Assembly (NCBI GenBank): GCA_964344635.1
Contig: CAYFOE010000002.1
Coordinates: forward strand, 34,953 to 98,952
Length of the DNA: 64,000 nt
Origin: Candidatus Woesearchaeota archaeon
GTDB lineage: Archaea > Nanobdellota > Nanobdellia > SCGC-AAA011-G17 > UBA489
Direction of reading: 5' to 3'
Shown here: in pieces, positions 5,332 through 28,780 of the stretch
How the letters are laid out: each line of letters begins with the position of its first letter
How positions within the stretch are numbered: position 1 is the first letter of the stretch
Position numbers and translations under genes: made by a program
The notes under the pieces: generated by a model
What the model saw: only the letters and a program-made list of their open reading frames with translations
Database searches by the model: none
Told to the model about the DNA's origin: nothing

Positions 5332-5847
5332 ATGTATTACAGTATGCCTTCAGATGATAATTTTTTAAGAAGTTGTAAGAAAACACAAACTCTCAGAGAA
5401 TATCATGGCCTTTTAAGTTTTTTAGAAAAGTATCCTTCAGTGCCTTCAGATTTTTCTGCTAGAAAGGAAATGATAGTTTCTAGGTATGGCCCTACAATTA
5501 GAGATAGGTCTGTTGAAAGCATGAGCGAAAATCAGGTGTATAGTATTTCTAAAAGCATAGATCGTTGTGCAAGAAAAAAAATTGAAGAATTTGGATTAGA
5601 AAATGTTATTGCGCAAAACATTAATGATGTTTTAAGATTTGGTTCTCTGTTGAATGAAGCAATAAGGTATGGGGCTGTGCCTCCTAATAGAACTAAAGTA
5701 GTTCAAGCTGCACGGTTAGTTCCACATACAACCCCGCTTAGAGGTATAATCATGAGCATGTTGAAAGAAAGAAGGAGCTATTTCCCTCATGAGCTTCCAA
5801 AAGAATTGCCTAAGGAACCTAGCTTAGAGCAAGAATCTTTGTTTTAG
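5332..5847 (+). CDS. hypothetical protein
   Basis: 171-aa ORF, no motifs recognised. Confidence 0.3.
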   Translation: MYYSMPSDDNFLRSCKKTQTLREYHGLLSFLEKYPSVPSDFSARKEMIVSRYGPTIRDRSVESMSENQVYSISKSIDRCARKKIEEFGLENVIAQNINDVLRFGSLLNEAIRYGAVPPNRTKVVQAARLVPHTTPLRGIIMSMLKERRSYFPHELPKELPKEPSLEQESLF

Positions 5848-6037
5848 ATTTTAATCCCTTAACAATTTTGGCTTGTTTCTTAAATTTTTTAGAAAAAAAT
5901 TTGGTAATTTCTAGGTTGGCTTCATTATTCTCGGGCTTACCTTTTGCGTTTATCTCGAAATAATTTTCATCTTCAGAAGTAATTTCAGTTTTTCTACAAC
6001 CAGTTCGTTTAACTTTAACTTGAATAGTTTTTACCAT
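5819..6037 (-). CDS. small basic hypothetical protein, start-stop coupled (TAATG) to the upstream pilin-like gene
   Basis: 72-aa lysine-rich ORF. Its ATG overlaps the stop of 6037..7935. Confidence 0.25.
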   Translation of the reverse strand: MVKTIQVKVKRTGCRKTEITSEDENYFEINAKGKPENNEANLEITKFFSKKFKKQAKIVKGLKSKTKILALS

Positions 6038-7935
6038 TAAGTGTATCTTGCGTAATCACTGACTCTAACTTCGTCGATGTATCCTTTGAAGTGTTCGTTG
6101 TTTTGGACGTTTGATCCCATTATTAAATATGCTCCGCCTGTGTCTACATCTCCAGTTTGTCCTTTTGGCGAGTCTCCTATGATCGGTCCATTTAAGACTC
6201 CATCGACGTAAATTCTCATTTCAGTTCCATCATAAACTCCTGCAACATGGTACCAGGTATTTGCGCTTGGTAGTTGTGCACTTGTTGATTTCCATGATCC
6301 TCCCCCATTGGATGTATCTATAAAGAACACTACGTTGTCATCAACAACTGAAATTGCCCATTCGCCGTTCTTGAATACGGCTCTTTGTGTTCCAGTTAAT
6401 TTCTTAGGATAAATCCATGCCTCTACAGTTAATTGGTCGGTTATACCTGATCCATCGTAATTTATTACGACTTGATCGTCATTGCCGTTAAACTCTAGTG
6501 CTGATCCATATTTTCCTGTGACCCATTTGTTTAGGTATGTGACTGGATTGCTGATCATTGATAGTGCATCAATTCCCATTGCATAATCTCCTGTTTGTTG
6601 AAAGTTTAGTAGCATTACTATTTTTGCGAATTTGGTTCCTCTCCACCAGGCTCCATATGCTGTACCATACAAGTTTTCCCCTGTTGTGGTTCCATCATAT
6701 TCTTTCCAAGTATAAAGTGCATGATCAGGAGGTCCTTGATCATATGCTTCGTACATATATGATCCTGCTCCTTTGTGCTGTCTAACTTTTGTTCCTGCAA
6801 TGAAGTCTACGTTTGCTGTTCCTTCCAATACTAGCTCCCAATAACCTTGTCCTGAATAGTCTAGAATGTCTGTTATTTTAGTAGTTAAGTCCCTGTTAGG
6901 TAAATCTGCATAGGCTCCTGAATCATCGATGTCAAATGCTGCATAAACTGATGAGCCATCATTAAGCCAGTTAGTACCATCTACAATTCTTACTGTTGTG
7001 TCTGTGGACTGTACATCCGCATAGAGTGTTGTTTCTGTAACTGCAGTAGTTACAGGATTAATTTCTTCTGATCTAATTCTAATTTGGTTTTCATCAAATG
7101 GAACATAGCCAAAAAAGAATTTACTCTTTCCTTCGCTTCCGGTAGATACAAAATGGCCACTCAAGGTGTATGTCTTTGCTAGATCTACTGCTATAAATTC
7201 TTCGCTCCATACATCATAAGGTTGTCCTGCTTTGGTGAAGCAGTAATCTCCATCATAACATTTTGCAGGGTCATAAATTGCTCCATCAAAATTATTGAAA
7301 TTAAACATTGATCCCTCTTCAGCATCTCCATTATCTATTAATTCTCCTTGAGTGTTAAATGTTCCATCTAATTTGTTGCTGCTTGAATCTCCAATAGTGC
7401 TGCCGTCTCCTTCATCAAATTTGTATAAAACTACTGTGTTTCCATCGGAATGGTATCCATTTCCGCCTTGGCTTCCTCCAAAATTTTGGTTGGATCCAAT
7501 TTCAACAACTGCAGTAATGACTGCATCTTTCATGTGTTCGATTCCACCATTCAAAAAACTATAATTGATAGTGAGAGGTTCTTCAATTAGATCATCTGGG
7601 TTAAAGTTACAATCAGATAAAGTAAACAATCCTTCGGCACCGTTGTCCAATCTCATACTGTCTGAAGAAATTCCACAACTTGCACTGCCGATTGAAAAGG
7701 TTTCAACGTCTTTGCCTAAACTATTTCTTACACTCATACTTATTGAGTCTTCATATACTGCAAAGTCATCACAACTTAATCCTGGGCCTAAAAAGCATGC
7801 TTTTGCTGCAAATGCTTTTGTATCAAATCCTAGATAGGATGTTAGAGAGCTTAATGCAACTAGAATAACTATAAGGGCCCAGCCATAAGTCATTACAAAC
7901 TCCATAGCACCTTGACCTCTTTTCCCAAAAAGCAT
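6037..7935 (-). CDS. pilin-like surface protein: class III (DUF361-type) signal peptide plus a C-terminal laminin-G (LamG_3, ConA-like lectin) domain
   Basis: N-terminus MLFGKRGQGAMEFVMTYGWALIVILVAL (K/R-G-Q then AMEF and a hydrophobic helix). C-terminus GSALEFNGNDDQVVINYDGS...LTVEAWIYP...WYHVAGVYDGTEMRIYVDGVLNG...HFKGYIDEVRVSDYARY, a canonical LamG pattern. Confidence 0.65.
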   Translation of the reverse strand: MLFGKRGQGAMEFVMTYGWALIVILVALSSLTSYLGFDTKAFAAKACFLGPGLSCDDFAVYEDSISMSVRNSLGKDVETFSIGSASCGISSDSMRLDNGAEGLFTLSDCNFNPDDLIEEPLTINYSFLNGGIEHMKDAVITAVVEIGSNQNFGGSQGGNGYHSDGNTVVLYKFDEGDGSTIGDSSSNKLDGTFNTQGELIDNGDAEEGSMFNFNNFDGAIYDPAKCYDGDYCFTKAGQPYDVWSEEFIAVDLAKTYTLSGHFVSTGSEGKSKFFFGYVPFDENQIRIRSEEINPVTTAVTETTLYADVQSTDTTVRIVDGTNWLNDGSSVYAAFDIDDSGAYADLPNRDLTTKITDILDYSGQGYWELVLEGTANVDFIAGTKVRQHKGAGSYMYEAYDQGPPDHALYTWKEYDGTTTGENLYGTAYGAWWRGTKFAKIVMLLNFQQTGDYAMGIDALSMISNPVTYLNKWVTGKYGSALEFNGNDDQVVINYDGSGITDQLTVEAWIYPKKLTGTQRAVFKNGEWAISVVDDNVVFFIDTSNGGGSWKSTSAQLPSANTWYHVAGVYDGTEMRIYVDGVLNGPIIGDSPKGQTGDVDTGGAYLIMGSNVQNNEHFKGYIDEVRVSDYARYT

Positions 7936-7956
7936 ATTAAATTCTAAAAAAATAAC

Positions 7957-8682
7957 TTATTTAAATCTTTTTAAAAGGTCTTCTTCGACAAAATGTAGAT
8001 TTCCTGGAATAATGATGCATTGAGGTGTTAACTTAATGTCTAGATCTTTAACATTTCCAAATTTAATTTCGTAATTTTCACTTCCTAGTCCGCCGCAGGC
8101 AACAACTTCACCTTCGAATCCCATCTTCACTAGATAGTCCATGCCTTCTCTTGCAGTCATTAATTCAAATTCTCCGTCAGTGCTTCCGACATCTAATAAA
8201 ATTAGGGTATGTAGTCCTGCTTTGATGTTTTCTTGTAACATTTCGTAGGGACTCACTACATTTTCATTATTTCTGGGTATGGTTATTACTCTTCCAAATT
8301 TATACAAACTTAGCCCTACAACACCGACTGCACTTAGGATTCCTGCATTGTCAATAACTTTATTCTCTATTCCTAATTCTTTTGCACGTTGTAATATGTC
8401 TGAGTGTGTGGTTGCCCCTAAGGGACTTCCCACAATTAACAATGCTACATTGCTTTCTTTTGCTGGGTTTAACATTTCTTCTTCACATTTTTTTTCAACA
8501 ACGTCTCTGTCTGCAAGGGTTATTTTCTTGCCGTATAGTTCTTCCATTTTTTTAATATCAAAATCGACTAATTTGCTGGTATAACATTCTAAGAAAACTT
8601 TATCGCATGACTTGACTGCTTCTAAACCTTTGACGGTTATGTCTTTCTCGTCTCCCATTCCAATACCTATTAGATAAAACAT
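7957..8682 (-). CDS. dph5: diphthine synthase (diphthamide biosynthesis methyltransferase)
   Basis: MFYLIGIGMGDEKDITVKGLEAVKSCDKVFLECYTS, the tetrapyrrole-methylase-fold Dph5 N-terminus. Length 241 aa. Confidence 0.85.
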   Translation of the reverse strand: MFYLIGIGMGDEKDITVKGLEAVKSCDKVFLECYTSKLVDFDIKKMEELYGKKITLADRDVVEKKCEEEMLNPAKESNVALLIVGSPLGATTHSDILQRAKELGIENKVIDNAGILSAVGVVGLSLYKFGRVITIPRNNENVVSPYEMLQENIKAGLHTLILLDVGSTDGEFELMTAREGMDYLVKMGFEGEVVACGGLGSENYEIKFGNVKDLDIKLTPQCIIIPGNLHFVEEDLLKRFK

Positions 8683-8694
8683 ATTTTTATTACC

Positions 8695-10158
8695 TTAATT
8701 TGGTTTAATAACCTTTCCAACCACACTCCTCAACATGTGGTCTACAACTTCGATATCGTAACTCTTTCTAATATCTATTTTTTCTTTGACGCCCACAATT
8801 AGTGGATAACTGCCCATTTGTCTTCCAAATGTGTGATTTCCATCATGAACTTCCATCCAGACGTCTTTCAAGATTGTGCCTTTTGGGACTAGTTTCTTTA
8901 ACATTTCAAAATCGATTTCTTTTCTTATTTTGTTTCTCCATTTCCAGTAGTTTGATTTGTTTTTCCTAATGAACTTGGTTCCTACATCCCACATTGCTGT
9001 TTCGGGCATGGGTGTAACTTGCCTGATGTTGATTCTTCTTAACAAAAGTCCTTCATCTAGCATCTTCTTTAGGTATTCGTAATTTATGCCTCCGGTTTTT
9101 TTGGATTCGTTTTTTAAACCGAATACTAGGTTCAGTCCAGGTAGTAGGTACTGCATTCCATTTGGTCCTCTTTTACTTCCAAATTTATTGATTATTCTAA
9201 CTGCTTTCATTGCAACTTCTGGTGCAGTGTTCAAGGTGTTGGCCTTAACTACTTCCATGTCAAAGCTTTCAACACCAAATGCGGCAACATTTCCTTCGGT
9301 ACAATGTTTAACAACTAGTTTGGTTCTTTCTTCATCGACTAAAGAAGGAATAACATTATCTATATGTAAACAGTTTAGTTTTAGCTTGCTTTCTCTTCCG
9401 ATGGGTTTCAATAATTTTTCAATTTCTTTGGTATTGATTCCTTTGTAACTAAAGAAGCAGGATTGTTTTCCTAGTCTGAAGTTTCTTTCTCCTAGGTCAT
9501 AAAATTTTTTGATTTCTTTATGGATGTCTTTTTGTTCTCGCCATTCTACTCTCGATTTCAGGGGTTCTGTGCAAAAACTACATTTGCCCATGATGCAACC
9601 TCTTCCAGTTTCAATCTCGATCATTTTTGGCCAAGGGATTTGTTTAGCGATTGAGGCTCCTTTAACTGCTAACGGGGCTAGATCGTCGTAATCTCCAAAG
9701 ACTTCGCCCATTCTTCCGTCGAATATATCTCCGGGAATTCTTTCGGCAACTCTTCCGCCTTGAAGTTGTGTTCCTGTACTGACTACTGGTCCGTATAGGA
9801 TTTTTTTGGCATTGATTTTGTCTAAGAATAGTTTTAATTCTCTGATTGTTCCTGGCAGTGCGCTCAAATATTTTCCGGGTGTTTGGATTCCTACAACACA
9901 GTAGAGTGTTTTGGTTTTTTCTAGGACTTCGCCAATATTTTTCCTGGTTAGGTTATAAATTTTGATATCTGTTTTTCTGGATCTCTTTTCTTTGTTTTTA
10001 TGATTGAAGTAGAATCTTAAATCGTCAATGGTGATGTAATTAACTTTTCCTTTCAAGTGTCCTGCTAGGTATCTAGGATGTACACCTAGATAGGGTGGAA
10101 CTCCTAGGCCTGCTGGCTCATCTGTGTAACAATCTAAGATTGTATCTTCATGTATCAT
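8695..10158 (-). CDS. radical SAM-like enzyme with non-canonical CX4CX2C cysteine spacing; 12 nt upstream of dph5 and probably co-transcribed
   Basis: IETGRGCIMGKCSFCTEP. The tabulated ORF starts at a TTG (10188); the first ATG at 10158 gives MIHEDTILDCYTDEPAGLG. About 487 aa. Confidence 0.45.
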   Translation of the reverse strand: MIHEDTILDCYTDEPAGLGVPPYLGVHPRYLAGHLKGKVNYITIDDLRFYFNHKNKEKRSRKTDIKIYNLTRKNIGEVLEKTKTLYCVVGIQTPGKYLSALPGTIRELKLFLDKINAKKILYGPVVSTGTQLQGGRVAERIPGDIFDGRMGEVFGDYDDLAPLAVKGASIAKQIPWPKMIEIETGRGCIMGKCSFCTEPLKSRVEWREQKDIHKEIKKFYDLGERNFRLGKQSCFFSYKGINTKEIEKLLKPIGRESKLKLNCLHIDNVIPSLVDEERTKLVVKHCTEGNVAAFGVESFDMEVVKANTLNTAPEVAMKAVRIINKFGSKRGPNGMQYLLPGLNLVFGLKNESKKTGGINYEYLKKMLDEGLLLRRINIRQVTPMPETAMWDVGTKFIRKNKSNYWKWRNKIRKEIDFEMLKKLVPKGTILKDVWMEVHDGNHTFGRQMGSYPLIVGVKEKIDIRKSYDIEVVDHMLRSVVGKVIKPN

Positions 10159-10159
10159 T

Positions 10160-10675
10160 TTAGTATCTTGAAAGGATTTTGTATGCAAAGCTCAAAATAA
10201 ATCCTGAAACAAAAGAAATAACCAATGCTTCATTGAGGTAACTGTTGATTCCAAAATGAATCAAGACTATTGCAGGTAATACGAAATAGAATAGGTTCTC
10301 AAATAATAAATTTTTCTTCCAATTTAAACTTGATTCTAGCATTCCGAACCAGAATATTAGGGCTGCGATTACAACTCCTGATTTGGCTGCAACAAAGGGA
10401 ATGAATATTGCAAAGACTGGATATGCATTTTTGATAAAAAATCCGAACAACAAACCTACAAAGAATAATCCGTAGGTCCAGTGAGTCATATCAGTAAAAA
10501 TTAATGAAAGTGAAACCAGTCCAATAACTATGGCTATGGCCATTTGGAAATACTTATAGTAGATTTTTCCTGGAACCATTTCTTCGGGTGAAATCTTCTT
10601 CAGGATGTATCCTGAGATAAGGCCTAAATAGGCGAATAATACTAACCAAATTGCCATTGTCTCTAAAAAAACCAT
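10160..10675 (-). CDS. polytopic membrane protein, hypothetical
   Basis: 171 aa and almost entirely hydrophobic helices. ATG start. Confidence 0.4.
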   Translation of the reverse strand: MVFLETMAIWLVLFAYLGLISGYILKKISPEEMVPGKIYYKYFQMAIAIVIGLVSLSLIFTDMTHWTYGLFFVGLLFGFFIKNAYPVFAIFIPFVAAKSGVVIAALIFWFGMLESSLNWKKNLLFENLFYFVLPAIVLIHFGINSYLNEALVISFVSGFILSFAYKILSRY

Positions 10676-10733
10676 AATCTTAGTCAGAGGGTAGCATATA
10701 AAAAGGTTTTCAGAATCAGATTATTAGATTAAA

Positions 10734-12791
10734 ATGTGCGGAATTATTGGGGCAATCAATCATATAGATCATAAGAAACTTGCTAGCAAGGCTCTCAAAG
10801 AGATAATTTATAGGGGGATTGACAATCAAGATTCCATATCTACAAAAAACTTCACATTCTCCCATTGTCTGCATTCTGTTGTTGGGAATAAACCTCAGCC
10901 TTTAGAAAATGATGATTTTATATTTTTGACAAATTGTGAGATCTATAATTGGGAAGAATTAAATGAGAGGTATAATTTTGATTCAGAGAATGATGCTGAG
11001 CTTCTGTTTAATCTTTTGACAACTCAAAAACTTGAGAAGGTTCTTCCTCAGTTGGATGGTGTTTTTGCATTTGCTTTGTATGATAAGAAAACAAAAAAGA
11101 CTGTGCTTGCGAGGGATCTTCTGGGTGTAAAACCTATTTGGTTCCACCATGACAAACATTTATTGTTCGCATCTGAAAAAAAGGCGATAGAATCCAAAGA
11201 GGTAGATCCTGAAGAACTAAATCCAAGAAAGATAATAATTTATGATCACCAAACAAAGAAGTTGGAGTTTTCTCAACAAGAGTTTTTTAGGATAGATCAT
11301 AGAGAGATAGATTTAAACAAAGAAAAGAAAAAAATAAAGGAACTTTTAGAGGATGCAGTAATCAAAAGAATACCTTCTAAGGGCCTAGGGGTGCTATTTT
11401 CTGGAGGTATTGACTCTACACTGCTTGCACATATTTTGAAGCAGAATAATGTTGATTTCACTGCGTACATGACTGTTTCTGAGACTAAGTCTAAGGAGAT
11501 TGAGAATGCTAAGAACATTGCTGAAAGATTAGGCTTCAAACTAAAATTAGTAAAGATTAACAAATCTATATTAAAGGAAGAACTTCCAAACATTATCCGA
11601 CTTATTGAGACTGCAGATCCGGTAAAGGTTGAAGTTGGGGCTACAATGTATTTTTCGTTGAAGGAGGCTCAAAAAGATAGGATGAAGGTTATCTTCTCGG
11701 GTGTGGGTGCAGATGATATTTTTGTGGGTTATAAACGGATGCATATGTCCCAGGATGTTTCTTTAGATTCACTTTCAAACTTGAGGAGAATTTATGAACG
11801 TGACTTGTATAGGGATGATGTTCTTTCAATGGCGAACAATATTGAGTTACGTTTACCTTATTTGGATAAAAAGTTGGTTCAAGCTTGTTTGAATGTTCCT
11901 AATGAGTATAAGATTTCTGATACTCCTAAAACTTTGTTGAGAGAAATTGCTAGAGATTTGAAACTTCCAAGAGAATTTTCTGAACTTAAGAGGAATGCCG
12001 CACAGTATAGTAGTGGTATTGGGAAGCTTACTTCTTCTTTGGTTAAGGATTCTAAGGTTCCTTACAAGGGTAAGTATTTTTCTAATATCTTAAAAGGGAA
12101 GAATTTGAGGCTGGGAGCTCTTCTCTCTACTGGGAAGGATAGTGTGTATGCTTTTCACATACAGGATAGGCTAAACTATGAGATTGCATCTTTGATTACT
12201 ATTGATTCTCAGAATAAAGATTCTTACATGTACCATACTCCTACTATTAATTTAGCTAAAAAACAATCTGAATCCCTAAATATTCCGTTGATTATTGAAA
12301 AAACTGTTGGAAAAAAGGAGGTTGAATTAAAGGAACTTGAAAAGGCATTGTCTAAGGCTAAAAGAGTGCATAGGATTCAGGGAATTACTACGGGTGCTTT
12401 GTTTTCTAATTACCAGAGAACTAGGATTGAGGAAATTTGTGATAAACTAAATTTGAAATGTTACTCGCCGCTCTGGCATATGGATCAGGAAAAAGAGATG
12501 GAGTACTTGATTAATAATGGTTATAAGTTCATAATGACTAAGGTTGCTGCTGATGGTTTGGATAAATCTTGGTTGGGTAAAATAATTTCAGAGGATCATC
12601 TAAAAAAATTGGTTCAATTGAATAAGAAGAATTATCTTAACATTGCAGGTGAGGGTGGTGAGTTTGAGACTTTGGTTTTGGATGCACCTATGTTCAAAAA
12701 ACAGATTATAATAAAGGAGTCTGAGGTTTTAGAAGAATCGAAGAATTCGGCAACTTTGGTAATCAAAAAATCGTCTTTAAAGAAAAAATGA
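10734..12791 (+). CDS. fusion protein: AsnB-type class II glutamine amidotransferase / asparagine synthetase domain (aa 1 to about 450) plus a Dph6/MJ0570-family diphthine-ammonia ligase domain (aa about 455 to 685)
   Basis: N-terminus MCGIIG (Cys2 nucleophile), LDGVFAFALYD, the PP-loop SGGIDSTLLAHIL. C-terminus has a second PP-loop LSTGKDSVYAFH, then DSYMYHTPT, SPLWHMDQEKEM, KVAADGLDKSWLGK, EGGEFETLVLDAPMFKK. Confidence 0.75.
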   Translation: MCGIIGAINHIDHKKLASKALKEIIYRGIDNQDSISTKNFTFSHCLHSVVGNKPQPLENDDFIFLTNCEIYNWEELNERYNFDSENDAELLFNLLTTQKLEKVLPQLDGVFAFALYDKKTKKTVLARDLLGVKPIWFHHDKHLLFASEKKAIESKEVDPEELNPRKIIIYDHQTKKLEFSQQEFFRIDHREIDLNKEKKKIKELLEDAVIKRIPSKGLGVLFSGGIDSTLLAHILKQNNVDFTAYMTVSETKSKEIENAKNIAERLGFKLKLVKINKSILKEELPNIIRLIETADPVKVEVGATMYFSLKEAQKDRMKVIFSGVGADDIFVGYKRMHMSQDVSLDSLSNLRRIYERDLYRDDVLSMANNIELRLPYLDKKLVQACLNVPNEYKISDTPKTLLREIARDLKLPREFSELKRNAAQYSSGIGKLTSSLVKDSKVPYKGKYFSNILKGKNLRLGALLSTGKDSVYAFHIQDRLNYEIASLITIDSQNKDSYMYHTPTINLAKKQSESLNIPLIIEKTVGKKEVELKELEKALSKAKRVHRIQGITTGALFSNYQRTRIEEICDKLNLKCYSPLWHMDQEKEMEYLINNGYKFIMTKVAADGLDKSWLGKIISEDHLKKLVQLNKKNYLNIAGEGGEFETLVLDAPMFKKQIIIKESEVLEESKNSATLVIKKSSLKKK

Positions 12792-12958
12792 GTCTGATAA
12801 TAACAGTTAAATGTACTAAGTGTGGAAAACTTCAAAAAATGGAGCTTAGACAGCCTAAAATTACTGTTTTTAATAAGCCTGATTTGACAAAGAAGAGGAA
12901 AAAGTGTGTTTGGTGTGAAAAATCTTTTAAAATTGATAGGGATTCTATTGTCAAATAG
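12788..12958 (+). CDS. small zinc-ribbon protein (56 aa); ATG overlaps the stop of the preceding gene
   Basis: MSLIITVKCTKCGKLQKMELRQPKITVFNKPDLTKKRKKCVWCEKSFKIDRDSIVK, with a CxxC...CxxC arrangement. Absent from the ORF table (under 60 aa). Confidence 0.35.
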   Translation: MSLIITVKCTKCGKLQKMELRQPKITVFNKPDLTKKRKKCVWCEKSFKIDRDSIVK

Positions 12959-12990
12959 CTTAAATATTTCTTGTACTCCTATAATTTACA

Positions 12991-13989
12991 GTGATTCGTT
13001 GGAGTGCCTCTAAAATTAAGTCTGCAACTACTTGTGCGCATATGATTTTTTTAAGGTATTTAAAAAAGGTTCAGGATCAGATGAGTGTGCCTCTTGCGGC
13101 GGGACTTTACATCCATTCTGGTTGTGAAAAATTTAATAATCCGAAATTGAAGAGGAGAAATTTTAAATCTTCGGAGAGTTATGCTAATTCTAGGGTTGGT
13201 ACTTGGAAAAGTTTTGTTGCATCAAAAGGTGTTTATGCAGGTCAGGAGATAGAGGAGAGTTTTGATGGGGAGATTTGGGCTGCGGCAGAGGGAATAATTA
13301 AGCCTTGTTCGCAAAGTTTTTATGAAACTTTTTGTGGGAGGGAAAAACCAATTGCCTCTGAAAGAAAGTTTACGTTGTCTGCTGGAGATTTTAGGATAAC
13401 TGGAGGTATTGATTGTATTGATCCGAATTTGGTTTATTGGGATTTTAAGAGTGGTTGGGGCGATAACCCCCCTACTAAGGAAACTTTGCAGAATGATTAT
13501 CAGTTTACGATTTATTCTGCTGCTTTGCCTTTGATTCTTGCTAGTGACCCGGTTCTAGCCAGCTTATCCGATTTAACTGATGCCCAAAGAAAAGCTCTTA
13601 GGGTGGATCCTTTGTCGCTTATGGAGGAAGTGGAGGGTAGATACTTTCACCTAAAGTCTGGAATTTTTGTTCCAACGAGAAGGACTAAGTCTGATTTGAT
13701 AGATCTCTTAAACACTATTGAGGCGCAGTCAATAAGGTTTGAACAAGGTGATTTTACTAGGTCTAAGGGAAAGCATTGTGATTGGTGCCATGTGCGGGAT
13801 GCATGCCATGCTGAAACTCTTGAAGATGAGATTGAGTTTCGTAATATAAAGAAAGAGAATGATGGGTCTTTGTTGTTTCCTCCGAGGAGGGATTTGACTT
13901 TTTATACTGGGGTTCCTTCTAATACAAGGTTGGTTTCTAAGCCTTCTAGGAGGAAGAAGAAACTTCAGGAACCTAATTTGTTTGATTAA
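12991..13989 (+). CDS. PD-(D/E)xK nuclease of the Cas4/RecB family with Fe-S cluster cysteines (solo Cas4-like)
   Basis: GGIDCID...VYWDFKSG (D...D-x-K), QNDYQFTIYSAA (QhxxY), N-terminal Cys (ATTCAHM) plus the C-terminal CDWCHVRDAC (C-x2-C-x5-C). GTG start. Confidence 0.6.
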   Translation: MIRWSASKIKSATTCAHMIFLRYLKKVQDQMSVPLAAGLYIHSGCEKFNNPKLKRRNFKSSESYANSRVGTWKSFVASKGVYAGQEIEESFDGEIWAAAEGIIKPCSQSFYETFCGREKPIASERKFTLSAGDFRITGGIDCIDPNLVYWDFKSGWGDNPPTKETLQNDYQFTIYSAALPLILASDPVLASLSDLTDAQRKALRVDPLSLMEEVEGRYFHLKSGIFVPTRRTKSDLIDLLNTIEAQSIRFEQGDFTRSKGKHCDWCHVRDACHAETLEDEIEFRNIKKENDGSLLFPPRRDLTFYTGVPSNTRLVSKPSRRKKKLQEPNLFD

Positions 13990-15200
13990 TAGTTGTTTGG
14001 GTCTACTTCTTCGTAGGTTCCGCCGATTCTTATTTCGTCGTAATAAACGTAGTTGTTCATTCTTGCGCTTGGCCCTCGATACAATCCAACTTTAAGATTT
14101 TTTGGTGTGGGGTTATACATGTTGATTCCATAAAATGGGTCTGCTGTGAATAATTCTCCGTTCAACCATCCCCGGATATATCCGTCGGTGTCTGTTGACC
14201 ATTTTATTTCAAATATTATGTCGTTCCATTCTCCTAGGTTGATTTCTTTTTCTGCAATGGATGCTGCTGGTGTTTCGGGTGTTGGTTTCCATACTAATCC
14301 GATTCCTTTTTCTCCGGTTATTAGTTCGGCATATTCTAGGTGTAGTGATGGTGGCATTCTTTTTCCGTCATAGAGGTCAAACCAGTCTTCCCAGGTTTGT
14401 CCATTACCTATGTCAGGCCTATGGAACCATTGTCCTATGATGTTGAAATTGTCTGGTGCGCTTATGTTGTATTCGTAACCTGGTGGGAAGTAGATACTCC
14501 ATCCGTAGAATATTGGTTCTCCGTTCATTGGGTATTGGTCTGCGTATTCTTCTCTTAGTGATAATTCTGCCCTACTTTTGTTTGTTGGCCAGTCTGCAGG
14601 GACAGCATAGTCCAGGTAGCTTACATTGAATTTTAGTGAGTAGTCTCCGTTCCTTGAAATATCGTCTACGATGGTTATTGATTCTGAATTGTTTATTTGT
14701 AGGTTCCAAAAACTAGAGATTCCTCCGTCGTCTACATTAGTTTCTAAGGATAGTATTCCCATTGCTGCTTGGACTATTGCAGTGACTGTTATGTTTCTAA
14801 TATGGTTTATCGAACTTCCTTCAAACATGTAACTTAGGTTTAAGTCTTCATTGACTAGTTCGTTTGAGTTAAAACTGCAACCACTCATTGTGAAGATTAA
14901 TTCTTCTCCGTTTTCTAGTACATAATTACTTGGTGGGTTTGAACAGTCTGCGTGGTTTATTGATATTTCACTTAGGTCTCTGCCTAGGCTATTCAAAACA
15001 ACTAAATTGATAGAGTCTTCATGGACTACAAAGTCTTTACAAAACAAACCTGGCCCTAGAATACATGATTCACTGACAAAACCTGCACTGTCCCTCTCCC
15101 AGAACACGTTCAAAGCTCCAATTGCTACTATTGCAACTAGTATTGTCCAACCGTAGGATGCTAAAAATTCCATAGCTGCCTGCCCTCTTTTTAAATACAT
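13986..15200 (-). CDS. pilin-like surface protein: class III (DUF361-type) signal peptide plus a C-terminal jelly-roll (lyase/lectin-like) domain. Its N-terminal region is paralogous to 6037..7935.
   Basis: MYLKRGQAAMEFLASYGWTILVAIVAIGAL. The conserved N-terminal region CILGPGLFCKDFVVHEDSINLVVLNSLGRD matches CFLGPGLSCDDFAVYEDSISMSVRNSLGKD in the paralog. C-terminus ...KVGLYRGPSARMNNYVYYDEIRIGG. Confidence 0.55.
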   Translation of the reverse strand: MYLKRGQAAMEFLASYGWTILVAIVAIGALNVFWERDSAGFVSESCILGPGLFCKDFVVHEDSINLVVLNSLGRDLSEISINHADCSNPPSNYVLENGEELIFTMSGCSFNSNELVNEDLNLSYMFEGSSINHIRNITVTAIVQAAMGILSLETNVDDGGISSFWNLQINNSESITIVDDISRNGDYSLKFNVSYLDYAVPADWPTNKSRAELSLREEYADQYPMNGEPIFYGWSIYFPPGYEYNISAPDNFNIIGQWFHRPDIGNGQTWEDWFDLYDGKRMPPSLHLEYAELITGEKGIGLVWKPTPETPAASIAEKEINLGEWNDIIFEIKWSTDTDGYIRGWLNGELFTADPFYGINMYNPTPKNLKVGLYRGPSARMNNYVYYDEIRIGGTYEEVDPNNY

Positions 15201-15263
15201 AATATTAAGTTAATGAAAATTTATTTAAAAGTTTTTAAAATTTAGATACTTTGAATGTCTCTC

Positions 15264-15999: not shown

Positions 16000-17982
16000 T
16001 TATTGGTAGTTTACCCAGATTGGTGATATCCAGATTCTTTCGCCGTCTTCTTGTATTCCTTTGACGTAGTAGTTGTATGAGTTTCCACTAGTGACGTTCA
16101 GGTCTTTCCATTTGATTTGAACATTTTTACTCATGGGTTGTGTATAATAAACTAGGTCTTCCCCATTTCTGTAAACAAATACTTCGGTGAATCTGTCTGT
16201 TCCGTGTAAAACAATATCTAGATTAGGATATTTTGTGGTGTTGAATTCGCTTCCGACGAAGTGTTTATTCACTCTGAAGGATCCGATTATTCTTGCTCCT
16301 GTTGTTCCGTAGGTTCTTCTGTTATTTAGTGCTTCCCAGATTGCGTCTCTTGAGTATTCTTTTGTATATACACCAGTGATTCCCATTCTTGTGTAGTAGT
16401 CGTCCCATGTTCCGCCGTTGGAGTTTGATGCTGGTTTACCTACGTGATTGTCTGAGTCTGCTGTGAATCCAAATTTATAACCATCTTTCAATGCTTCTTG
16501 GACGAATACTCCGCTTCCTTTGGGATGTTGGTTGCTTGTGGAGAATCTTGAGGGTAGTCCACTGTCGTAGTGTTCGTTGCCTCCGTGCCAGGAGTACATT
16601 TCGATTAGTGGTTGGTTTGGGTGGTCTTTCCATGATCCCCATTTTACTGGCCCTGCAAAGGTCCATCCGGTGTGGTGGGGGATTGCTAGGGAGTCTGTTC
16701 CTGTTAGATTGTTTAATAGGTCGTCAATTTTTGATAGTTTGTAGGTTCCTGTTGATTTTTGGTTGCATGGAACTTCGCCCCAGTTTTCTGCATTTTTTAG
16801 TAGTACATGTCTGTGACCTTCTTGGTTGCTGGTCCATTCATATCCTGCGAATGCTATGAAGTTTGGTGAGTTATAGTTTACACCGTAGTCTTTTACTTTT
16901 ACCCAGTCGAATGGTAGTTCGTTTGAAACTGCTGTGCAATGTTCTGATATTGAGAAGAAGTCTAGTCCTTCAACGTTTTTTGCCCAGTCGTATGCAAAGT
17001 CTGTTGTGTGTAGTGCATGTCCTCCGATTGAGCTGTGTGTATGTATTGCTCCCCAGTATACTGCGTAGTCTTTGTATTTTCCGTTTCCTTTGATTACTGC
17101 TGGGTTGCTTGTTCCGTTGATGGTTTGGTTTCCAATTTCATAAACGAATATTTCTAGGAGGCCTCTCTTTTTAGGTATTATTTCGAACTCTACTATTCCT
17201 CTGTCTGATTCTTTGAATGTGTATTGGTTTGGCAGGATTACTTTAGCGTCTTTTGCATAGAATCCTATTGTTCCGGTATAATTTCTTACTAGTGGGTTTG
17301 CTATTTTATTGCTTGGGAATCCTTGTATTGCTTGTACTTTCATCTTCAGGGATTCGTTTATGTTTCCTACTGATCTGGTTACTACTTTGAATCTGCTTAT
17401 TGAGGTTCCACTTACTTCGATTTTTGGGTATAAACTTTCTGAGTATGCAACTTCCCAGTCACTGTTTCCGTCTTTTTTTTCTTCTACGAATATTCTAGCT
17501 TCGGCTGCATCTCTGCTTAGTTGCCAGCCTTTGCTTGCTTGACTTGTGTCTCCTAGTGTGAATTCAACTATGTCTCCTGTTTTGAAGGGGTTTGAGTTGT
17601 TTGATTGCCATACTTCGAAGCCGAATTCGCTTGGTTTGAAGTCCATGCTGTTTGGTTGGTTTAGTGAGAATTCTCTGTTTTCGATTTTTACTGTTGAATA
17701 TCCTTGTAGTGTTGGGCGGTCGATGTTGAAGTTCATCCAATAACCGTATCTTAGTTTAAAATTAGTTTCATTTTGCCACATGTGGCCGAGGTATACTCTT
17801 ACACCTCCATCATTTCCGAAGTCTTGGCTGATTGTGTAGTTTAAGTTTAAGGTTGTGAAGACTCTTTCGATTCCTTTGTCTTCCATTGATGGGTAAAAGG
17901 TATCTCCTTCCATGTTAATTTGTGCGCTAACAATTGGTAGAATTAACATTAGTGTCGTCAAAATAATTGTAATCTTTCTCAT
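16000..17982 (-). CDS. secreted metal-dependent hydrolase, PHP/CehA-McbA-like (tentative)
   Basis: Signal peptide MRKITIILTTLMLILPIVSA, plus YWGAIHTHSSIGGHA, ISEHC, LAIPHHTGW and FTADSDNHVG His/Asp clusters suggesting a PHP-type metal site. Confidence 0.35.
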   Translation of the reverse strand: MRKITIILTTLMLILPIVSAQINMEGDTFYPSMEDKGIERVFTTLNLNYTISQDFGNDGGVRVYLGHMWQNETNFKLRYGYWMNFNIDRPTLQGYSTVKIENREFSLNQPNSMDFKPSEFGFEVWQSNNSNPFKTGDIVEFTLGDTSQASKGWQLSRDAAEARIFVEEKKDGNSDWEVAYSESLYPKIEVSGTSISRFKVVTRSVGNINESLKMKVQAIQGFPSNKIANPLVRNYTGTIGFYAKDAKVILPNQYTFKESDRGIVEFEIIPKKRGLLEIFVYEIGNQTINGTSNPAVIKGNGKYKDYAVYWGAIHTHSSIGGHALHTTDFAYDWAKNVEGLDFFSISEHCTAVSNELPFDWVKVKDYGVNYNSPNFIAFAGYEWTSNQEGHRHVLLKNAENWGEVPCNQKSTGTYKLSKIDDLLNNLTGTDSLAIPHHTGWTFAGPVKWGSWKDHPNQPLIEMYSWHGGNEHYDSGLPSRFSTSNQHPKGSGVFVQEALKDGYKFGFTADSDNHVGKPASNSNGGTWDDYYTRMGITGVYTKEYSRDAIWEALNNRRTYGTTGARIIGSFRVNKHFVGSEFNTTKYPNLDIVLHGTDRFTEVFVYRNGEDLVYYTQPMSKNVQIKWKDLNVTSGNSYNYYVKGIQEDGERIWISPIWVNYQ

Positions 17983-18217: not shown

Positions 18218-19009
18218 ATGACTCAAAGCAGAAACAAGGGATTTATGCCTAACGGTAAGAATGGAAGTCCTGAATGGATTGAAGAACTGTTGGCATACCA
18301 TAGGGAAAACCCTGATGGAGACGCAGAAGAAATACTCTTTCAAGCAATGCATACTGATAGTTTGACTGGTGTTCTTGCTAGAAGCGGTATCGAACATGTT
18401 ATTGATCAAATAGAGGAATCTAGGACGCCTACTGGTGTTGCATTCTTTGATTTAATGGATTTTAAGCAAATTAATGATGAAATAGGTCACGATGCAGGAG
18501 ATAGAGCGATTTCTTATACTGCAAACACTTTAGCAAAGATACTCCGTACGGGAAAAACTGGAGATAGAAGACAATCAGAGAGAATAGTTTTCCAATCTGG
18601 TCCGGATAGAAGGTCTTATTCTCTAAAGGAAGATATTGTTTTTAACAAATTAGTTGAAAGGTCAGAAGTCGGAAGAATGGGCGGAGATGAATTCTTGGTT
18701 TTACTTCCAAGAGTTAGAACTTATGCTGCACTAGAAAATATTGGATTTAGGGTGGCTGATGCGATTAACAGTGATCCGGATTGTCAACCAACTTCTATTG
18801 GTTTTGCACTTTACCAACCTGATAAGGTGGGTATGGCTGAAACAATTGCACATGCAGATAAGGCAATGTATGCTGCTAAAAAAGAACTCAAATTAGACAA
18901 GAAGGAAAGGAATCTTTCTAGGTCAGAAAGTGGGTTCGGAATCCACCAACCTGATAAAGATTTCAAGATTTATCTTCCTGGAGATATCAAAAGTAAAAAG
19001 ATAGCGTGA
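18218..19009 (+). CDS. GGDEF-domain protein (putative diguanylate cyclase; intact GGDEF A-site, no RxxD I-site)
   Basis: DSLTGVLARSG, FFDLMDFKQINDEIGHDAGDRAI, RMGGDEFLVLLP, HADKAMYAAKKE. An AAGAGG SD-like motif sits about 10 nt upstream of the ATG. Visibly GC-richer than the flanks. Confidence 0.7.
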   Translation: MTQSRNKGFMPNGKNGSPEWIEELLAYHRENPDGDAEEILFQAMHTDSLTGVLARSGIEHVIDQIEESRTPTGVAFFDLMDFKQINDEIGHDAGDRAISYTANTLAKILRTGKTGDRRQSERIVFQSGPDRRSYSLKEDIVFNKLVERSEVGRMGGDEFLVLLPRVRTYAALENIGFRVADAINSDPDCQPTSIGFALYQPDKVGMAETIAHADKAMYAAKKELKLDKKERNLSRSESGFGIHQPDKDFKIYLPGDIKSKKIA

Positions 19010-24700: not shown

Positions 24701-25204
24701 AATTCTGAAAAGGAAGATGTTCATACAATGATTGATGAAATTGAAAAGAACAAAAAGACTATATTCATGAAAACTTTCAAAGAGTTAAATAAGAATTTTG
24801 CAAGGATTTTCCTTTCACTTTCTAGAAAGGGAGAAGCTAGTCTAGAATTAGAGAATAAGTTAGATCCTCTGAGTGAAGGTGTGGATATTAAGGTAAGAAT
24901 TACAGGTAATAGGTTCTTGGATATCAAGTCTCTTTCGGGTGGTGAAAAGACTATGGCTGCTTTAGCTTTCATTTTTGCAATTCAAGAATATCAACCTATG
25001 GCTTTCTATTTACTTGATGAAGTTGATGCTGCATTAGATAAAAGAAATTCAGAATTGTTATCAGAGTTGGTTTCAAAGTATTCTGGAACCGCTCAGTATA
25101 TCATGATTTCCCATAATGATAATGTTATCTCTGAAGCTGACTATGTTTATGGCGTGAGTATGCATGAGACTGGAATCTCGAAGGTAGTTAGTTTAAAATT
25201 ATGA
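21779..25204 (+). CDS. smc: chromosome segregation protein SMC
   Basis: Walker A GPNGSGKSN, long coiled coils, hinge (VFGTVSELGEVDKKFSSALEVAAGPRIRSLVVQDD), signature LSGGEKTMAALAFIFA and Walker B YLLDEVDAALD. 1141 aa. Confidence 0.85.
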   Translation: MAIIKSMKLKGFKSFAKQLDLEFGPGFNCIIGPNGSGKSNVMDALCFVLGKLSAKSMRAEKSSNLIFNGGKKGSPLREAEVSLTFTNDDNEFPIEANEVKLSRIIKQTGNSVYKINDQVMTRQQILELLARAKIDPDGHNIILQGDIVRFMEMKADHRRELIEDIAGISIYEDKKNKAMNSLTKVEAQLNDVTIILKEREAYLKELRKEKEQAEKYRKLEKNIKSNKATFLNIQINDKEKKLEDIASRIKKQEAQLKKFEENEQNIREKIKIKKGELEALNHEIEEKGEKDAITLQEEIEKLKTETARNSERISTCKSEISKITERKKQLEASLEDTKKTINGLEESKNKLTEEVTKLKEKETKESSRINQVKSSLGLSDNTELDSLETTLDKKLAEFEELQSKNQELLQKKFQLDAELSNLNEKINAIQELEKSTDLKNAKKEFERVSKELNKRLNEDTVLSTQVRKAKEEYALLNERLFKIQTQKSSMKASASFDLAIKKIKDLKNPKVFGTVSELGEVDKKFSSALEVAAGPRIRSLVVQDDRVAAECIKTLKASRTGTATFLPMNKIRGRPATRIKGTGVYGSAVDLIDFDPRFKEIFSYVFANTLVVENIETARKVGIGKVRMVTLEGDLVEASGAMIGGYRTKRIGLGFQEKNLNTDLDNLSKKIDKASQTKEVIEGRKVENENKISELRNNKSHLEAEIIKHERSTSGLNSIELKNRISKIKGDSTYSEFSNLGKIMNSLNLEIQKLKAEKEKLKKTSSGNEGRSQLEALEGKRLKTREEVVEKNTQIRNIEIQKQNIYIPEKEKIQQLIKNSEKELIDFNGEFKTLGSLLKDQSSRLNKKEGEKSKFQKLYKDLFSKRNKISEETQKLEASIILEANKEKTVNEKINELSIGRAKVTAEIEALNGEFEEFEGISLRRGLTLDQLKLEIKNFESMLSKIGNVNMRALEVYEEILNEYEKLIEKKDKLNSEKEDVHTMIDEIEKNKKTIFMKTFKELNKNFARIFLSLSRKGEASLELENKLDPLSEGVDIKVRITGNRFLDIKSLSGGEKTMAALAFIFAIQEYQPMAFYLLDEVDAALDKRNSELLSELVSKYSGTAQYIMISHNDNVISEADYVYGVSMHETGISKVVSLKL

Positions 25205-26260
25205 TTTTTTCTTAAGAATTACTTTATTTATTCCACGCATTTCTTTGTTGTAGATTAAGAAAGATACGACTAGCATAACTGCTATCAATAAGATCAATAG
25301 CTTGAATGTGTTTTCGCTCATCTTAAAGTCTTCTTCTATTCTGCTGGGTTTTTCTAAATGTGCTGCTTTAGAGTCTATGGTTATTACTGCTGAATCAACT
25401 AGGGTGATGCCTTTGTATCTTACTTCTACACCTACCACATATAGGCCGTTGCCTAAGCCTTGTGGTAAGGATAGAGTCTTGTCTAATTTTAAGGAGTCTT
25501 TCACTGTCAAAAACTGGGATGTCCTCATAATCTCCTGATTATATGAGTTCTTAACAATGTAAACTACTTCAACTCTGTCATTTGAGAATCCTTCCATGTT
25601 CAAAGAAACTAGTACATCTCCGCTCTCGATCATTGTAACAAATTGTTTTGGAAGATTTACACTTAATTTTCCTACTGCTTTGGAGGATCCAATATTCAAT
25701 ATTACAGGTACCAGTGATCTCAAACCTCCACCTGTTGCCGAGATATATCCGGTGAAAACTCCTGATTCAGTTCCGATAAATCTTACAATTACTGTCCCTT
25801 TTTCTCCTGGTTCAAGAATTATCCTTAAGGGTTCAAATTCTATGAGGTCTTTCAAGGTCGTTCCAAATGAAAATTCAACTGTATTAGGCGCAGTATTTTC
25901 TATCATTAGTTCTTCAGAGGCACTTCCTCCTTTTAACAGGTCTATTTCAAATCTATCATTTCCTCCGATACCTACCTTGCTTCCGGATTTAAATAATGCT
26001 ACAGAAGGTGCTGCTTCTTCAACTGCAGCGGCTGCAGCGGCTGCTTCTTCTGCTTCAGGTCTTTCGATAATAGTAATATTCATACTTCCGGTCGCATCTC
26101 CGGTTATGTATGATCTTTCTATTTCTTTCTCCCCAATTCTTTCAAGGATATTTGAAGAGCCAATTAAGACTACAACGACTAATGTCAACAAGAGCAATGA
26201 AACTGTATTGATCTTTCTATTAAATTCCGCGGCAGTAAGTTTGAATTTGTTTTTTGCCAT
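25199..26260 (-). CDS. membrane-anchored surface protein (N-terminal signal-anchor, C-terminal TM), last gene of the surface operon
   Basis: LLLLTLVVVVLIGSS near the N-terminus, an EAEEAAAAAAAVEEAAPS linker, and C-terminal LLILLIAVMLVVSFLIY followed by a basic tail. Confidence 0.4.
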   Translation of the reverse strand: MAKNKFKLTAAEFNRKINTVSLLLLTLVVVVLIGSSNILERIGEKEIERSYITGDATGSMNITIIERPEAEEAAAAAAAVEEAAPSVALFKSGSKVGIGGNDRFEIDLLKGGSASEELMIENTAPNTVEFSFGTTLKDLIEFEPLRIILEPGEKGTVIVRFIGTESGVFTGYISATGGGLRSLVPVILNIGSSKAVGKLSVNLPKQFVTMIESGDVLVSLNMEGFSNDRVEVVYIVKNSYNQEIMRTSQFLTVKDSLKLDKTLSLPQGLGNGLYVVGVEVRYKGITLVDSAVITIDSKAAHLEKPSRIEEDFKMSENTFKLLILLIAVMLVVSFLIYNKEMRGINKVILKKKS

Positions 26261-26261
26261 A

Positions 26262-26666
26262 TTAAACTCTTAGATAAACTAAGGATAATTTACCAGTATA
26301 ATAGCCCATTTCATAATTTTCAGGAATTTTTAATGAGAGGACTAGTGTTTTTTTCTCGCCTGCAGGCAGATAAAATCCATTATCGCTTATATCGATATTC
26401 TCTATACCGAATAAGTATGCATTAACAATAACGTCTTCATCGGAAATAATTTCTATTTCTCTTTCAAAAACCATGTTTTCACTAATTGTCCCAAAATGGA
26501 TTGCGTCTTCATCTAAGTTTATTCCCATATATTCTCCATGAACATAATCAATGGGGTAAGATGCATAACCTGCAATGTTTATTTTTACGTAAAGCAACAA
26601 ACCTAAAATCACCAAAACTAAAAAAGAAACTAGGAATATTGCTAGATTCTTATGCTGTTTCTTCAT
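26262..26666 (-). CDS. small signal-anchored extracellular protein
   Basis: N-terminal TM segment IFLVSFLVLVILGLLLYV. 134 aa. Start-stop overlap with the upstream gene. Confidence 0.35.
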   Translation of the reverse strand: MKKQHKNLAIFLVSFLVLVILGLLLYVKINIAGYASYPIDYVHGEYMGINLDEDAIHFGTISENMVFEREIEIISDEDVIVNAYLFGIENIDISDNGFYLPAGEKKTLVLSLKIPENYEMGYYTGKLSLVYLRV

Positions 26667-28765: not shown

Positions 28766-28780
28766 TAACCCTCCTTTGTC

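Follow-up and report, generated by a model that had tools for sequence, protein, structure and literature searches.

Two likely modular type IV pilins with carbohydrate-directed cargo domains in a Woesearchaeota-like DPANN archaeon

Introduction

The way in which archaea of the DPANN group (named after Diapherotrites, Parvarchaeota, Aenigmarchaeota, Nanoarchaeota and Nanohaloarchaeota) recognise and hold on to hosts and other surfaces is largely unknown. Two genes in a 64 kb stretch of contig CAYFOE010000002.1, which comes from a Woesearchaeota-like member of this group, raise the question in a concrete form. The whole stretch is referred to below as the window, and coordinates are given on it unless stated otherwise. 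The two open reading frames (ORFs), ORF A (6037..7935) and ORF B (13986..15200), are encoded on the minus strand, begin in the manner of archaeal prepilins and continue into large C-terminal regions of a different kind. Are these proteins type IV pilins, and if so, what do they carry on the cell surface?

The analysis described here leads to the answer that ORF A and ORF B are likely to be modular type IV pilins, which would be processed, inserted into a filament and used to display a lectin together with a carbohydrate-binding module (CBM) in the first case and a polysaccharide lyase in the second. All statements on cleavage, polymerisation, glycan binding and lyase activity are drawn from homology and genomic context. 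If this reading is right, the two genes provide concrete, testable molecules for the problem of DPANN surface recognition.

Two genes with a common N-terminal module

A first-pass annotation of the window, made from the sequence alone, had placed the two genes at the coordinates given above, and the ORF call agrees with it. ORF A encodes a protein of 632 amino acids (aa), composed of a pilin module, a linker, a CBM4_9-like domain and a LamG_3 domain. ORF B encodes 404 aa, in which the pilin module is followed by a short linker and a PL20-like polysaccharide lyase domain. The N-termini read from the sequence are MLFGKRGQGAMEFVMTYGWALIV in ORF A and MYLKRGQAAMEFLASYGWTILV in ORF B. Both contain the start K-R-G-Q-x-A-M-E-F, followed by an uncharged helix, and both contain the cysteine-bearing stretch C[FI]LGPGLxCxDFxVxEDSI.....NSLGxD, as the annotation had described. 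The BLASTP alignment of residues 2–145 of ORF A with residues 1–144 of ORF B is gapless and gives 42% identity (E 2e-40). Beyond this shared module of about 144 aa, BLASTP returns no significant alignment between the two proteins, and the Pfam matches of the C-terminal parts differ as well, in agreement with the divergence that the annotation had noted.

The whole 64 kb was also scanned in six frames with the pattern [KR]G[QA]x[AGS]x[ED][hydrophobic]. The pattern stands at the head of a long ORF solely in ORF A and ORF B, and the one further match belongs to a frame of 25 codons.

The module as a complete small pilin

The shared module consists of a short basic leader, a hydrophobic helix and a globular beta-domain. 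All segments of the two proteins given here and below lie on the minus strand. In ORF A, the leader MLFGKRG (aa 1–7; 7915..7935) is predicted to be removed by class III cleavage between G7 and Q8, while in ORF B the leader MYLKRG (aa 1–6; 15183..15200) would be cut between G6 and Q7; both sites follow the pattern of the family. The mature hydrophobic helix of ORF A (aa 8–34; 7834..7914) starts with Gln at +1 and has a mean Kyte-Doolittle hydropathy of 1.34; in the AlphaFold2 model the helix extends over residues 7–34. In both proteins, position +5 is Glu and the stretch +6 to +28 is free of charged residues. The helix of ORF A leads into the pilin beta-domain (aa 35–147; 7495..7833), which is modelled as all-beta with a predicted local distance difference test (pLDDT) score above 90. 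It contains the cysteines 47, 55, 87 and 109, which are invariant or near-invariant in the wider family. The mature pilin module of ORF B (aa 7–146; 14763..15182) is likewise modelled by AlphaFold2 as a helix followed by a beta-sandwich. Full-length ORF A reaches a mean pLDDT of 88.9 and the ORF B module one of 89.4; in the latter, the helix covers residues 5–34 and seven strands of at least 3 residues follow. The common picture of the models is an N-terminal helix of 28–30 residues and an immunoglobulin (Ig)-like beta-sandwich.

The pilins of Methanococcus maripaludis that are processed by EppA have a leader of 5–13 aa whose last residue is Gly, and the mature protein begins with Gln at +1 and has Glu at +5 (PMC3875500). 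Read against this description, the sequences of ORF A and ORF B both contain the motif of an EppA substrate. No match to PF07963, the bacterial N-terminal methylation motif, was found in either protein, and a search of PDB sequences with the module returned nothing usable. At the level of structure, Foldseek with the ORF B module recovered archaeal pilins as weak matches, 8fk7 from Pyrobaculum at rank 3 (E 1.5e-3) and 8q30, the Sulfolobus Aap pilin, at rank 6 (E 4.6e-3).

The extent of the family became visible with profile searches, which were adopted because a first single-sequence, word-indexed search with the N-module gave two matches only. These two matches, of 153 and 161 aa, are standalone proteins that consist of the module alone. 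In the exhaustive profile search, 7,496 cluster representatives pass E ≤1e-3 and 3,594 pass ≤1e-10; the best 150 of them are mostly 140–165 aa long. A second profile search gave 6,979 matches, which belong to Candidatus Woesearchaeota or Nanoarchaeota where the organism is named. Among 152 sequences, namely the best 150 and the two standalone proteins, 62 are longer than 200 aa and bear the module at the N-terminus. The modular fraction can be given only roughly owing to the bias of the query profile, and ranges from about 3% in the second profile search, through about 9% of the 80 loci described below, to 41% in the first profile search.

Across the family, and with the leader anchored on the Gln, K or R occupies −2 in 95% and −3 in 84% of the members, G, A or S occupies −1 in 100%, and the median leader length is 6 aa. 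The residues Q+1, E+5 and F+6 and the YGW motif are essentially invariant over hundreds of members. The family consensus reads KKGQAAMEFLMTYGWAILVVL-AIGALAYFGVL and continues into the beta-domain with its four invariant or near-invariant cysteines. Taken by itself, the module amounts to a whole small pilin, and the DPANN family to which it belongs is very large and has no model in Pfam or NCBIfam. In the annotation of the Joint Genome Institute, several members are called 'UPF0333 family'. Such proteins are at present labelled 'hypothetical' or merely 'LamG domain-containing', and the family merits a curated model.

Linkage to the pilus machinery

The role of the module can be read from the genes next to its standalone form. 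In all three cases in which standalone members were found on long metagenome contigs, they adjoin a T2SSE (PilB-type) ATPase gene and two T2SSF (PilC-type) platform genes, and on each of these contigs the pilin stands in tandem with a second copy. In those operons, the ATPase and platform genes are preceded by a gene for a protein of about 380–410 aa and by five class III-like genes (KAQISMEYL, KKTQTAIEF, KKAQIWYTDF, KKGFFFT...).

The association was followed over 80 species-representative GTDB loci. These come mostly from Woesearchaeota, Nanoarchaeota/Nanoarchaeia and Pacearchaeota; a few are named just 'archaeon', and 11 carry the unverified label 'uncultured Methanosarcinales'. Many of the loci lie on truncated contigs. 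The ORF lengths given for the loci are those of maximal ORFs. Within 10 kb of the pilin, the ATPase is found at 35 of the 80 loci, a platform gene at 36 and at least one component of the operon at 51, and the median distance from pilin to ATPase is about 2 kb. Such an operon architecture matches 'system 1' (Epd-like) of the type IV filaments, which has one ATPase, two platform genes and many pilins and has been reported in methanogens, Thermococcales and DPANN archaea (bioRxiv 10.64898/2026.04.22.720090). Because of this genomic association, the module family can be assigned to the subunits of type IV filaments.

The standalone members are probably the major pilin, judging by their size, tandem duplication, conservation and position. 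The globular domains of ORF A and ORF B share 30–45% identity with the operon-encoded pilins, and among orthologs the carrier module is conserved at 57–62% identity. The first-pass annotation had proposed a tip adhesin of the minor-pilin type. Of this proposal the adhesin-type display stands, while the carrier resembles the presumed major pilin and not the minor pilins of the operon, and the tip becomes one possible placement among others. The carriers of fused proteins tend to group with one another: 53 of 73 modular members have another modular member as nearest neighbour, against an expectation of 26%, in a sample that is enriched for orthologs of ORF A.

The operons of the loci L005, L006 and L007 also encode a protein of 614–1,058 aa with the class III-like N-terminus KKGFFFT..., for which faint vWA matches are seen in L005. 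It may be a dedicated large tip adhesin, separate from the modular pilins. No homologue of a prepilin peptidase of the A24 family or of EppA was seen in these three operons.

Modular members are also found in other genomes, some of them close to the machinery. In a Pfam census of 61 long family members, LamG_3 is present in 22, and the further cargos include DUF2341, CBM96, pentaxin, NosD/beta-helix, DUF4185, phage Gp38 adhesin and fibrinogen_C. Sorted by species locus, LamG_3 occurs at L017 and L042, CBM96 at L043 and L044, fn3/PAP_N at L048 and vWA at L061. At L043, the CBM96 pilin is encoded right after two tandem small pilins beside the ATPase and platform genes, and at L042 the LamG pilin lies about 5 kb from the ATPase. 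An example of a divided arrangement is the metagenome-assembled genome H43-bin028_1, in which L042 is the contig with the machinery and a second contig (L048) encodes three modular pilins in tandem.

The cargo of ORF A

Behind the pilin module of ORF A, a flexible linker rich in Gly, Ser and Asn (SNQNFGGSQGGNGYHSD; aa 148–164; 7444..7494), modelled with pLDDT below 50, leads to two carbohydrate-directed regions. The second of these is a LamG_3 domain of the ConA-like lectin/glucanase type (aa 471–632; 6040..6525), which had been proposed in the first reading of the sequence and is confirmed by PF13385 at residues 483–630 (E 1.4e-26; 93.9 bits against a cut-off of 27.6 bits). The Foldseek matches of the domain are laminin LG, BoNT/NTNH H_CN and the carbohydrate-binding domain 4 of the arabinanase AbnA, with E of about 1e-6 to 1e-7. 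When the full ORF A model was used as the query, such LamG matches swamped those of the pilin and middle domains.

The region between linker and LamG_3 (aa 165–470; 6526..7443) is modelled as all-beta with pLDDT above 90. Its own sequence finds no match in Pfam or the PDB, and its description as CBM4_9-like comes from relatives. In the relative P0282, the homologous region matches PF02018 (CBM_4_9) with 28.1 bits against a cut-off of 25.9, and the match maps to about residues 199–280 of ORF A. Weak PF02018 matches are also present in P0285, P0288 and P0295.

The two regions may not simply follow each other. Residues 166–196 of ORF A, LYKFDEGDGSTIGDSSSNKLDGTF, look like the strand with which a LamG_3 domain usually begins and are parted from the rest of that domain (471–632) by about 270 residues of the CBM4_9-like region. 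A LamG-like first strand ahead of the CBM-like region suggests that the CBM-like domain may be inserted inside LamG_3, giving a nested architecture. About 14 full-length orthologs of ORF A are known, with 39–52% identity, and these belong to Candidatus Woesearchaeota where the organism is named.

The same cargo is found on other handles. Residues 170–489 of ORF A align with P0286 at 42% identity over 326 aa (E 3e-65). This protein is partial, cut by the contig end, and is encoded at L013:4748-6141 of GCA_023136675.1, a Candidatus Peribacteraceae genome of the Candidate Phyla Radiation (CPR). It starts with ...RQRG/FTLLELLIV and matches PF07963 (N_methyl), as a bacterial prepilin does, and its contig also encodes bacterial NusA and the lipoprotein signal peptidase LspA. 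In P0284, P0287 (MNKRG/VSDVITTVLIILLV), P0288 and P0289, the cargo stands behind archaeal Pilin_N-like leaders. That a single cargo sits on three pilin handles unrelated to one another, in bacteria as well as in archaea, is strong and independent support for a function on type IV filaments. The same distribution points to transfer of the cargo across the domain boundary, and the 42% identity to P0286 suggests that DPANN archaea and CPR bacteria, ultrasmall symbionts of two unrelated lineages, have come to share tools of attachment by this route.

The cargo of ORF B

In ORF B, the linker (aa 147–157; 14730..14762) lies between the module and a polysaccharide lyase domain (aa 158–404; 13989..14729). 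PF14099 (Polysacc_lyase; PL13/PL20) matches residues 158–391 (E 1.1e-31) with 110.8 bits against a cut-off of 29.9 bits and covers profile positions 3–210 of 210. The C-terminal part had been annotated as a jelly-roll different from that of ORF A and, by implication, as a lectin; the jelly-roll holds and the lectin does not, since the match is to an enzyme family. The broader claim of a pilin N-terminus that displays a lectin domain changes in the same way: carbohydrate-directed cargo on a pilin N-terminus is supported for both proteins, and in ORF B this cargo is a lyase.

The sole relative of the ORF B cargo among PDB sequences is the glucuronan lyase A 2ZZJ (PL20), found with E 8e-7 from the single sequence and 1.2e-7 from a two-sequence profile. 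The blocks aligned with high confidence fall in roughly the C-terminal third of the lyase domain. The two share the beta-jelly-roll, and their sequence similarity is low. A further difference lies in their delivery, as known enzymes of the PL20 type are free secreted proteins, whereas the ORF B lyase is fused to a pilin. ORF B is identical to P0003 and has a full-length ortholog with 59% identity in GCA_018655015.1, in which the motifs RAEL210, GQWFH256 and KVGLY370 are kept. The patterns RAEL, QxxH and KxGxY may resemble signatures of the PL7 type.

Proposed mechanism and alternative explanations

The proposed mechanism starts with preproteins that bear a basic leader of 6–7 residues. A class III (prepilin, EppA/PibD-type) peptidase would cut after the Gly and leave Gln at +1 and Glu at +5. 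The mature helix and the four-cysteine beta-domain of about 110 residues would then form a complete pilin module, homologous to the tandem small pilins of 'system 1' (Epd-like), and the pilus machinery would insert this module into a filament, either at the tip, interspersed by means of the flexible linker, or at least in a short surface pseudopilus. Such insertion would put the cargo outside the cell. There, the tandem or nested unit of CBM4_9-like and LamG_3 domains in ORF A would act as a carbohydrate-binding adhesin. The PL20/PL13-type beta-jelly-roll lyase of ORF B would, by its family membership, cut uronic-acid polysaccharides of capsules, extracellular polymeric substances (EPS) or host envelopes at the site of contact. 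A carrier of the major-pilin type and the 17-residue disordered linker of ORF A make both tip and body placement possible. For bacterial modular pilins, placement at the tip is favoured, and the authors allow a position within the filament body given a flexible linker (PMC8179133). It is plausible that ORF A and ORF B together serve as a tool to grip and cut the surface sugars of other cells.

Several results weigh against the assignment of ORF A and ORF B to modular pilins. First, the profile libraries do not recognise the module. The cut-off of PF04021 (Class_IIIsignal/DUF361/UPF0333) is 23.7 bits, and ORF A scores 10.6 bits (E 0.6), while ORF B has no match. Among 118 family modules only 4 reach E ≤1, with a best value of 0.13, and a search of NCBIfam with the shared module found nothing. 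As the PF04021 threshold is missed, the term 'DUF361-type' used in the first-pass annotation can be retained for the resemblance to the EppA-substrate motif and not for membership in that family. Second, the Foldseek matches to archaeal pilins are weak, with template modelling (TM) scores of about 0.34, and stand amid generic Ig-like matches. Third, no T2SSE, T2SSF or A24 peptidase gene is present in the window and 10 kb on each side. The stretch searched amounts to 83 kb of a 139.5 kb metagenome contig from ENA (project PRJEB17505), from which the flanks were taken and on which the window occupies positions of about 38,865–102,864. With none found in these 83 kb, the machinery is shown just in relatives of the source organism. 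Fourth, the cargo of ORF A also occurs behind Sec-like leaders in P0282 and P0283 and is therefore not specific to pili. Fifth, the alignment of ORF B to 2ZZJ is partial, and the catalytic residues of ORF B cannot be mapped from it. Finally, a bulky C-terminal load on a carrier of the major-pilin type might not fit into the lattice of a filament.

The last point leads to the alternative that survives best, which is nevertheless regarded as unlikely. The pilus-type machinery may use signal and module only to insert lectin and lyase into the cell envelope and keep them there, either in short oligomers or within the S-layer, in the manner of a bindosome or pseudopilus and with no extended pilus. 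A precedent is provided by Sulfolobus, where a type IV pilus-like system builds envelope complexes from sugar-binding proteins with class III signals (PMC3047682). The position of ORF A and ORF B among housekeeping genes, distant from any machinery, would suit such anchoring, as would a cargo whose bulk may hinder polymerisation. ORF A and ORF B, however, retain more than signal and helix: the complete globular pilin domain, including the four conserved cysteines, is preserved in both. The modular member encoded at L043 immediately after the tandem pilins and the presence of the same cargo on a bacterial pilin also speak for filaments. Nor is distance from the machinery unusual, since scattered pilin genes are normal in M. 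maripaludis, where the pilus genes are dispersed over at least four loci (PMC3875500).

The exposed, low-confidence linker between carrier and cargo in both proteins permits a different scenario, in which the module is an export handle in the manner of type II secretion and proteolysis of the linker frees an exo-enzyme (ORF B) and a lectin (ORF A). A spontaneous cleavage site is marked in the PilC protein in the paper on PilC of Streptococcus sanguinis, which lends some colour to this scenario. The Pfam scan of ORF A and ORF B showed no protease site or autoprocessing domain, however, and it is hard to see what a tiny episymbiont-like cell would gain from an unanchored lectin. With a carrier module so strongly conserved in the orthologs, release appears very improbable. 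A plain Sec signal anchor, by which the prepilin likeness would be superficial and the proteins membrane-anchored exoproteins, agrees with the subthreshold PF04021 score and the Sec-like leaders of P0282 and P0283 but is hardly credible and was rejected, because a Sec signal needs neither the near-invariant Q+1, E+5, F+6 and YGW nor G/A/S at −1 and K/R at −2, and because genes of the family are found in physical linkage with those for the pilus ATPase and platform.

The modular-pilin reading can be extended to the whole family. In the extended form, type IV pili of DPANN archaea would be general display scaffolds, in which subunits with the framework of the major pilin cap the filament or are dispersed along it and equip it with interchangeable lectins, CBMs, vWA domains and even a lyase. 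The outcome would be an adhesive pilus able to cut glycans when host envelopes or EPS are attacked. Cassettes would be swapped with the type IV pilins of CPR bacteria, which are likewise ultrasmall episymbionts, by changing only the pilin handle. This generalisation is tentative and, as it stands, doubtful.

Comparison with known systems

The principle of the modular pilin is already known from bacteria (Raynaud et al. 2021, PMC8179133; Shahin et al. 2023, PMC9934059), where the examples are PilC of S. sanguinis with a ConA-like lectin and PilB with a vWA domain. A modular pilin is defined by a pilin module, a linker and a domain that is not specific to type IV pili, and this composition is found in ORF A and in ORF B. 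Like PilC and PilB, they combine a class III signal and pilin module with a linker and a functional module, and a role in adhesion to glycans is proposed in both systems. The vWA cargo of PilB also has a counterpart in the archaeal family, at L061. By this analogy, ORF A and ORF B would be archaeal analogues of S. sanguinis PilC and PilB.

The differences concern both the carrier and the cargo. The archaeal carrier has an EppA-type leader with Q+1 and E+5 and an Ig-like beta-sandwich with four cysteines, and not the IPR012902/N-methyl-Phe type of the bacterial proteins. The bacterial survey was keyed on the IPR012902 signature, and therefore it was blind to archaeal carriers. The archaeal carrier is also homologous to a presumed major pilin and not to a specialised minor pilin. 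In the bacterial survey, PF13385 is among the most frequent cargos of modular pilins, and the only enzymatic cargos predicted are peptidase modules (S74, M26) (PMC8179133), whereas the cargo of ORF B is a polysaccharide lyase. What is new here is a very large archaeal pilin family, without a Pfam or NCBIfam model, which acts as the carrier for exchangeable heads of the sugar-binding, protein-binding and enzymatic kinds, a lyase among them, one of the heads being common to CPR pilins. The modular-pilin principle is thereby extended from bacteria to archaea, and a glycan-degrading enzyme is added to the cargo borne on pili.

Among archaeal systems, the Epd pilus of M. maripaludis, or 'system 1', shares with the DPANN family the type of leader and scattered loci (PMC3875500), as well as one ATPase, two platform genes and many pilin-like genes (bioRxiv 10.64898/2026.04.22.720090). 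The major pilin of Methanococcus has about 74 aa and no globular domain (PMC3875500), whereas the DPANN family has a beta-domain of about 110 aa. The EppA-processed DUF361 pilins differ in two further respects, as PF04021 does not score the DPANN module and the operons examined contain no EppA homologue.

The bindosome of Sulfolobus solfataricus (BasEF) is another system in which functional archaeal proteins with class III signals depend on a pilus-like assembly for surface display (PMC3047682). Its substrates are solute-binding proteins of ATP-binding cassette (ABC) transporters, which share just the signal and the hydrophobic segment (PMC3047682). In contrast, ORF A and ORF B keep the entire pilin head and carry lectin or lyase cargo, with neither a solute-binding domain nor an adjacent ABC transporter.

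Synteny and genomic neighbourhood

The origin of the two genes is best seen in a relative. The locus L012:7033-11875 of GCA_018655015.1 (Candidatus Woesearchaeota) contains three modular pilin genes in tandem, encoding a PL20-lyase pilin of 406 aa, a pilin with two LamG domains of 567 aa (P0004) and the ORF A ortholog of 624 aa (P0005). The syntenic order is radical SAM, Dph5, lyase-pilin, 2xLamG-pilin, ORF A ortholog and DUF167. In the window, no 2xLamG paralog is present and 6 kb separate ORF B from ORF A; the middle gene of the array was either lost here or never present. From the three-pilin array of the relative, the ancestral state was probably a tandem array of modular pilins, and ORF A and ORF B are probably paralogs from such an array, which this relative has kept intact.

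A recent duplication or a mobile element was also considered for the pair and rejected, as the modules are just 42% identical, both genes have orthologs, and the tandem array stands at a syntenic site in the relative.

ORF A begins 21 nt downstream of the Dph5 gene and overlaps the DUF167 gene. Such spacing and overlap suggest that it may be co-transcribed with these housekeeping genes. The overlap is a TAATG stop/start junction with the 72-aa ORF at 5819..6037 on the minus strand, which the first-pass annotation had reported and the sequence confirms. This ORF belongs to the DUF167/YggU family (PF02594, E 2.7e-10), and in L012 a DUF167 gene likewise lies downstream of the ORF A ortholog, as a conserved neighbour. 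As a functional partner of ORF A it was rejected, since DUF167/YggU is a housekeeping protein with no known link to pili. Upstream of ORF B, the sequence TTTAAATA (15222..15229, minus strand), 22–29 nt before the ATG, is a possible archaeal TATA box; the DNA is AT-rich, and the assignment is weak.

The interval between the pilin genes, 7957..12791, is occupied by a diphthamide-pathway cluster. It includes a Dph5-type methylase (7957..8682), a radical SAM protein of 497 aa (8695..10188) and a fusion of an asparagine-synthase-like domain with a diphthamide-synthase (Dph6) domain (10734..12791). The ORF B stop and the end of a convergent PD-(D/E)XK nuclease gene (12991..13989) share 4 nt. The genes upstream of ORF B encode a 134-aa protein with no significant Pfam match and a 660-aa signal-peptide protein with DUF3604 (16000..17982).

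Further away, a large cluster of surface-protein genes at 25199..36657 on the minus strand contains the lectin-type domain of ORF A. Its largest product is a 2,225-aa protein (29980..36657, minus strand) with two LamG_3 stretches; next come five secreted or membrane proteins (353, 134, 394, 221 and 400 aa) with faint Ig-like/CARDB matches. At 60249..60725 on the minus strand, a 158-aa protein with no Pfam match starts with MHLKNFRKGILFLAMLFGLSLGVVIG, which may be another class III-like or a signal-anchor N-terminus. A 263-aa protein of the diguanylate-cyclase type with a GGDEF domain (PF00990) is encoded at 18218..19009 on the plus strand, according to the precomputed annotation of an identical contig, and is unusual in a DPANN archaeon.

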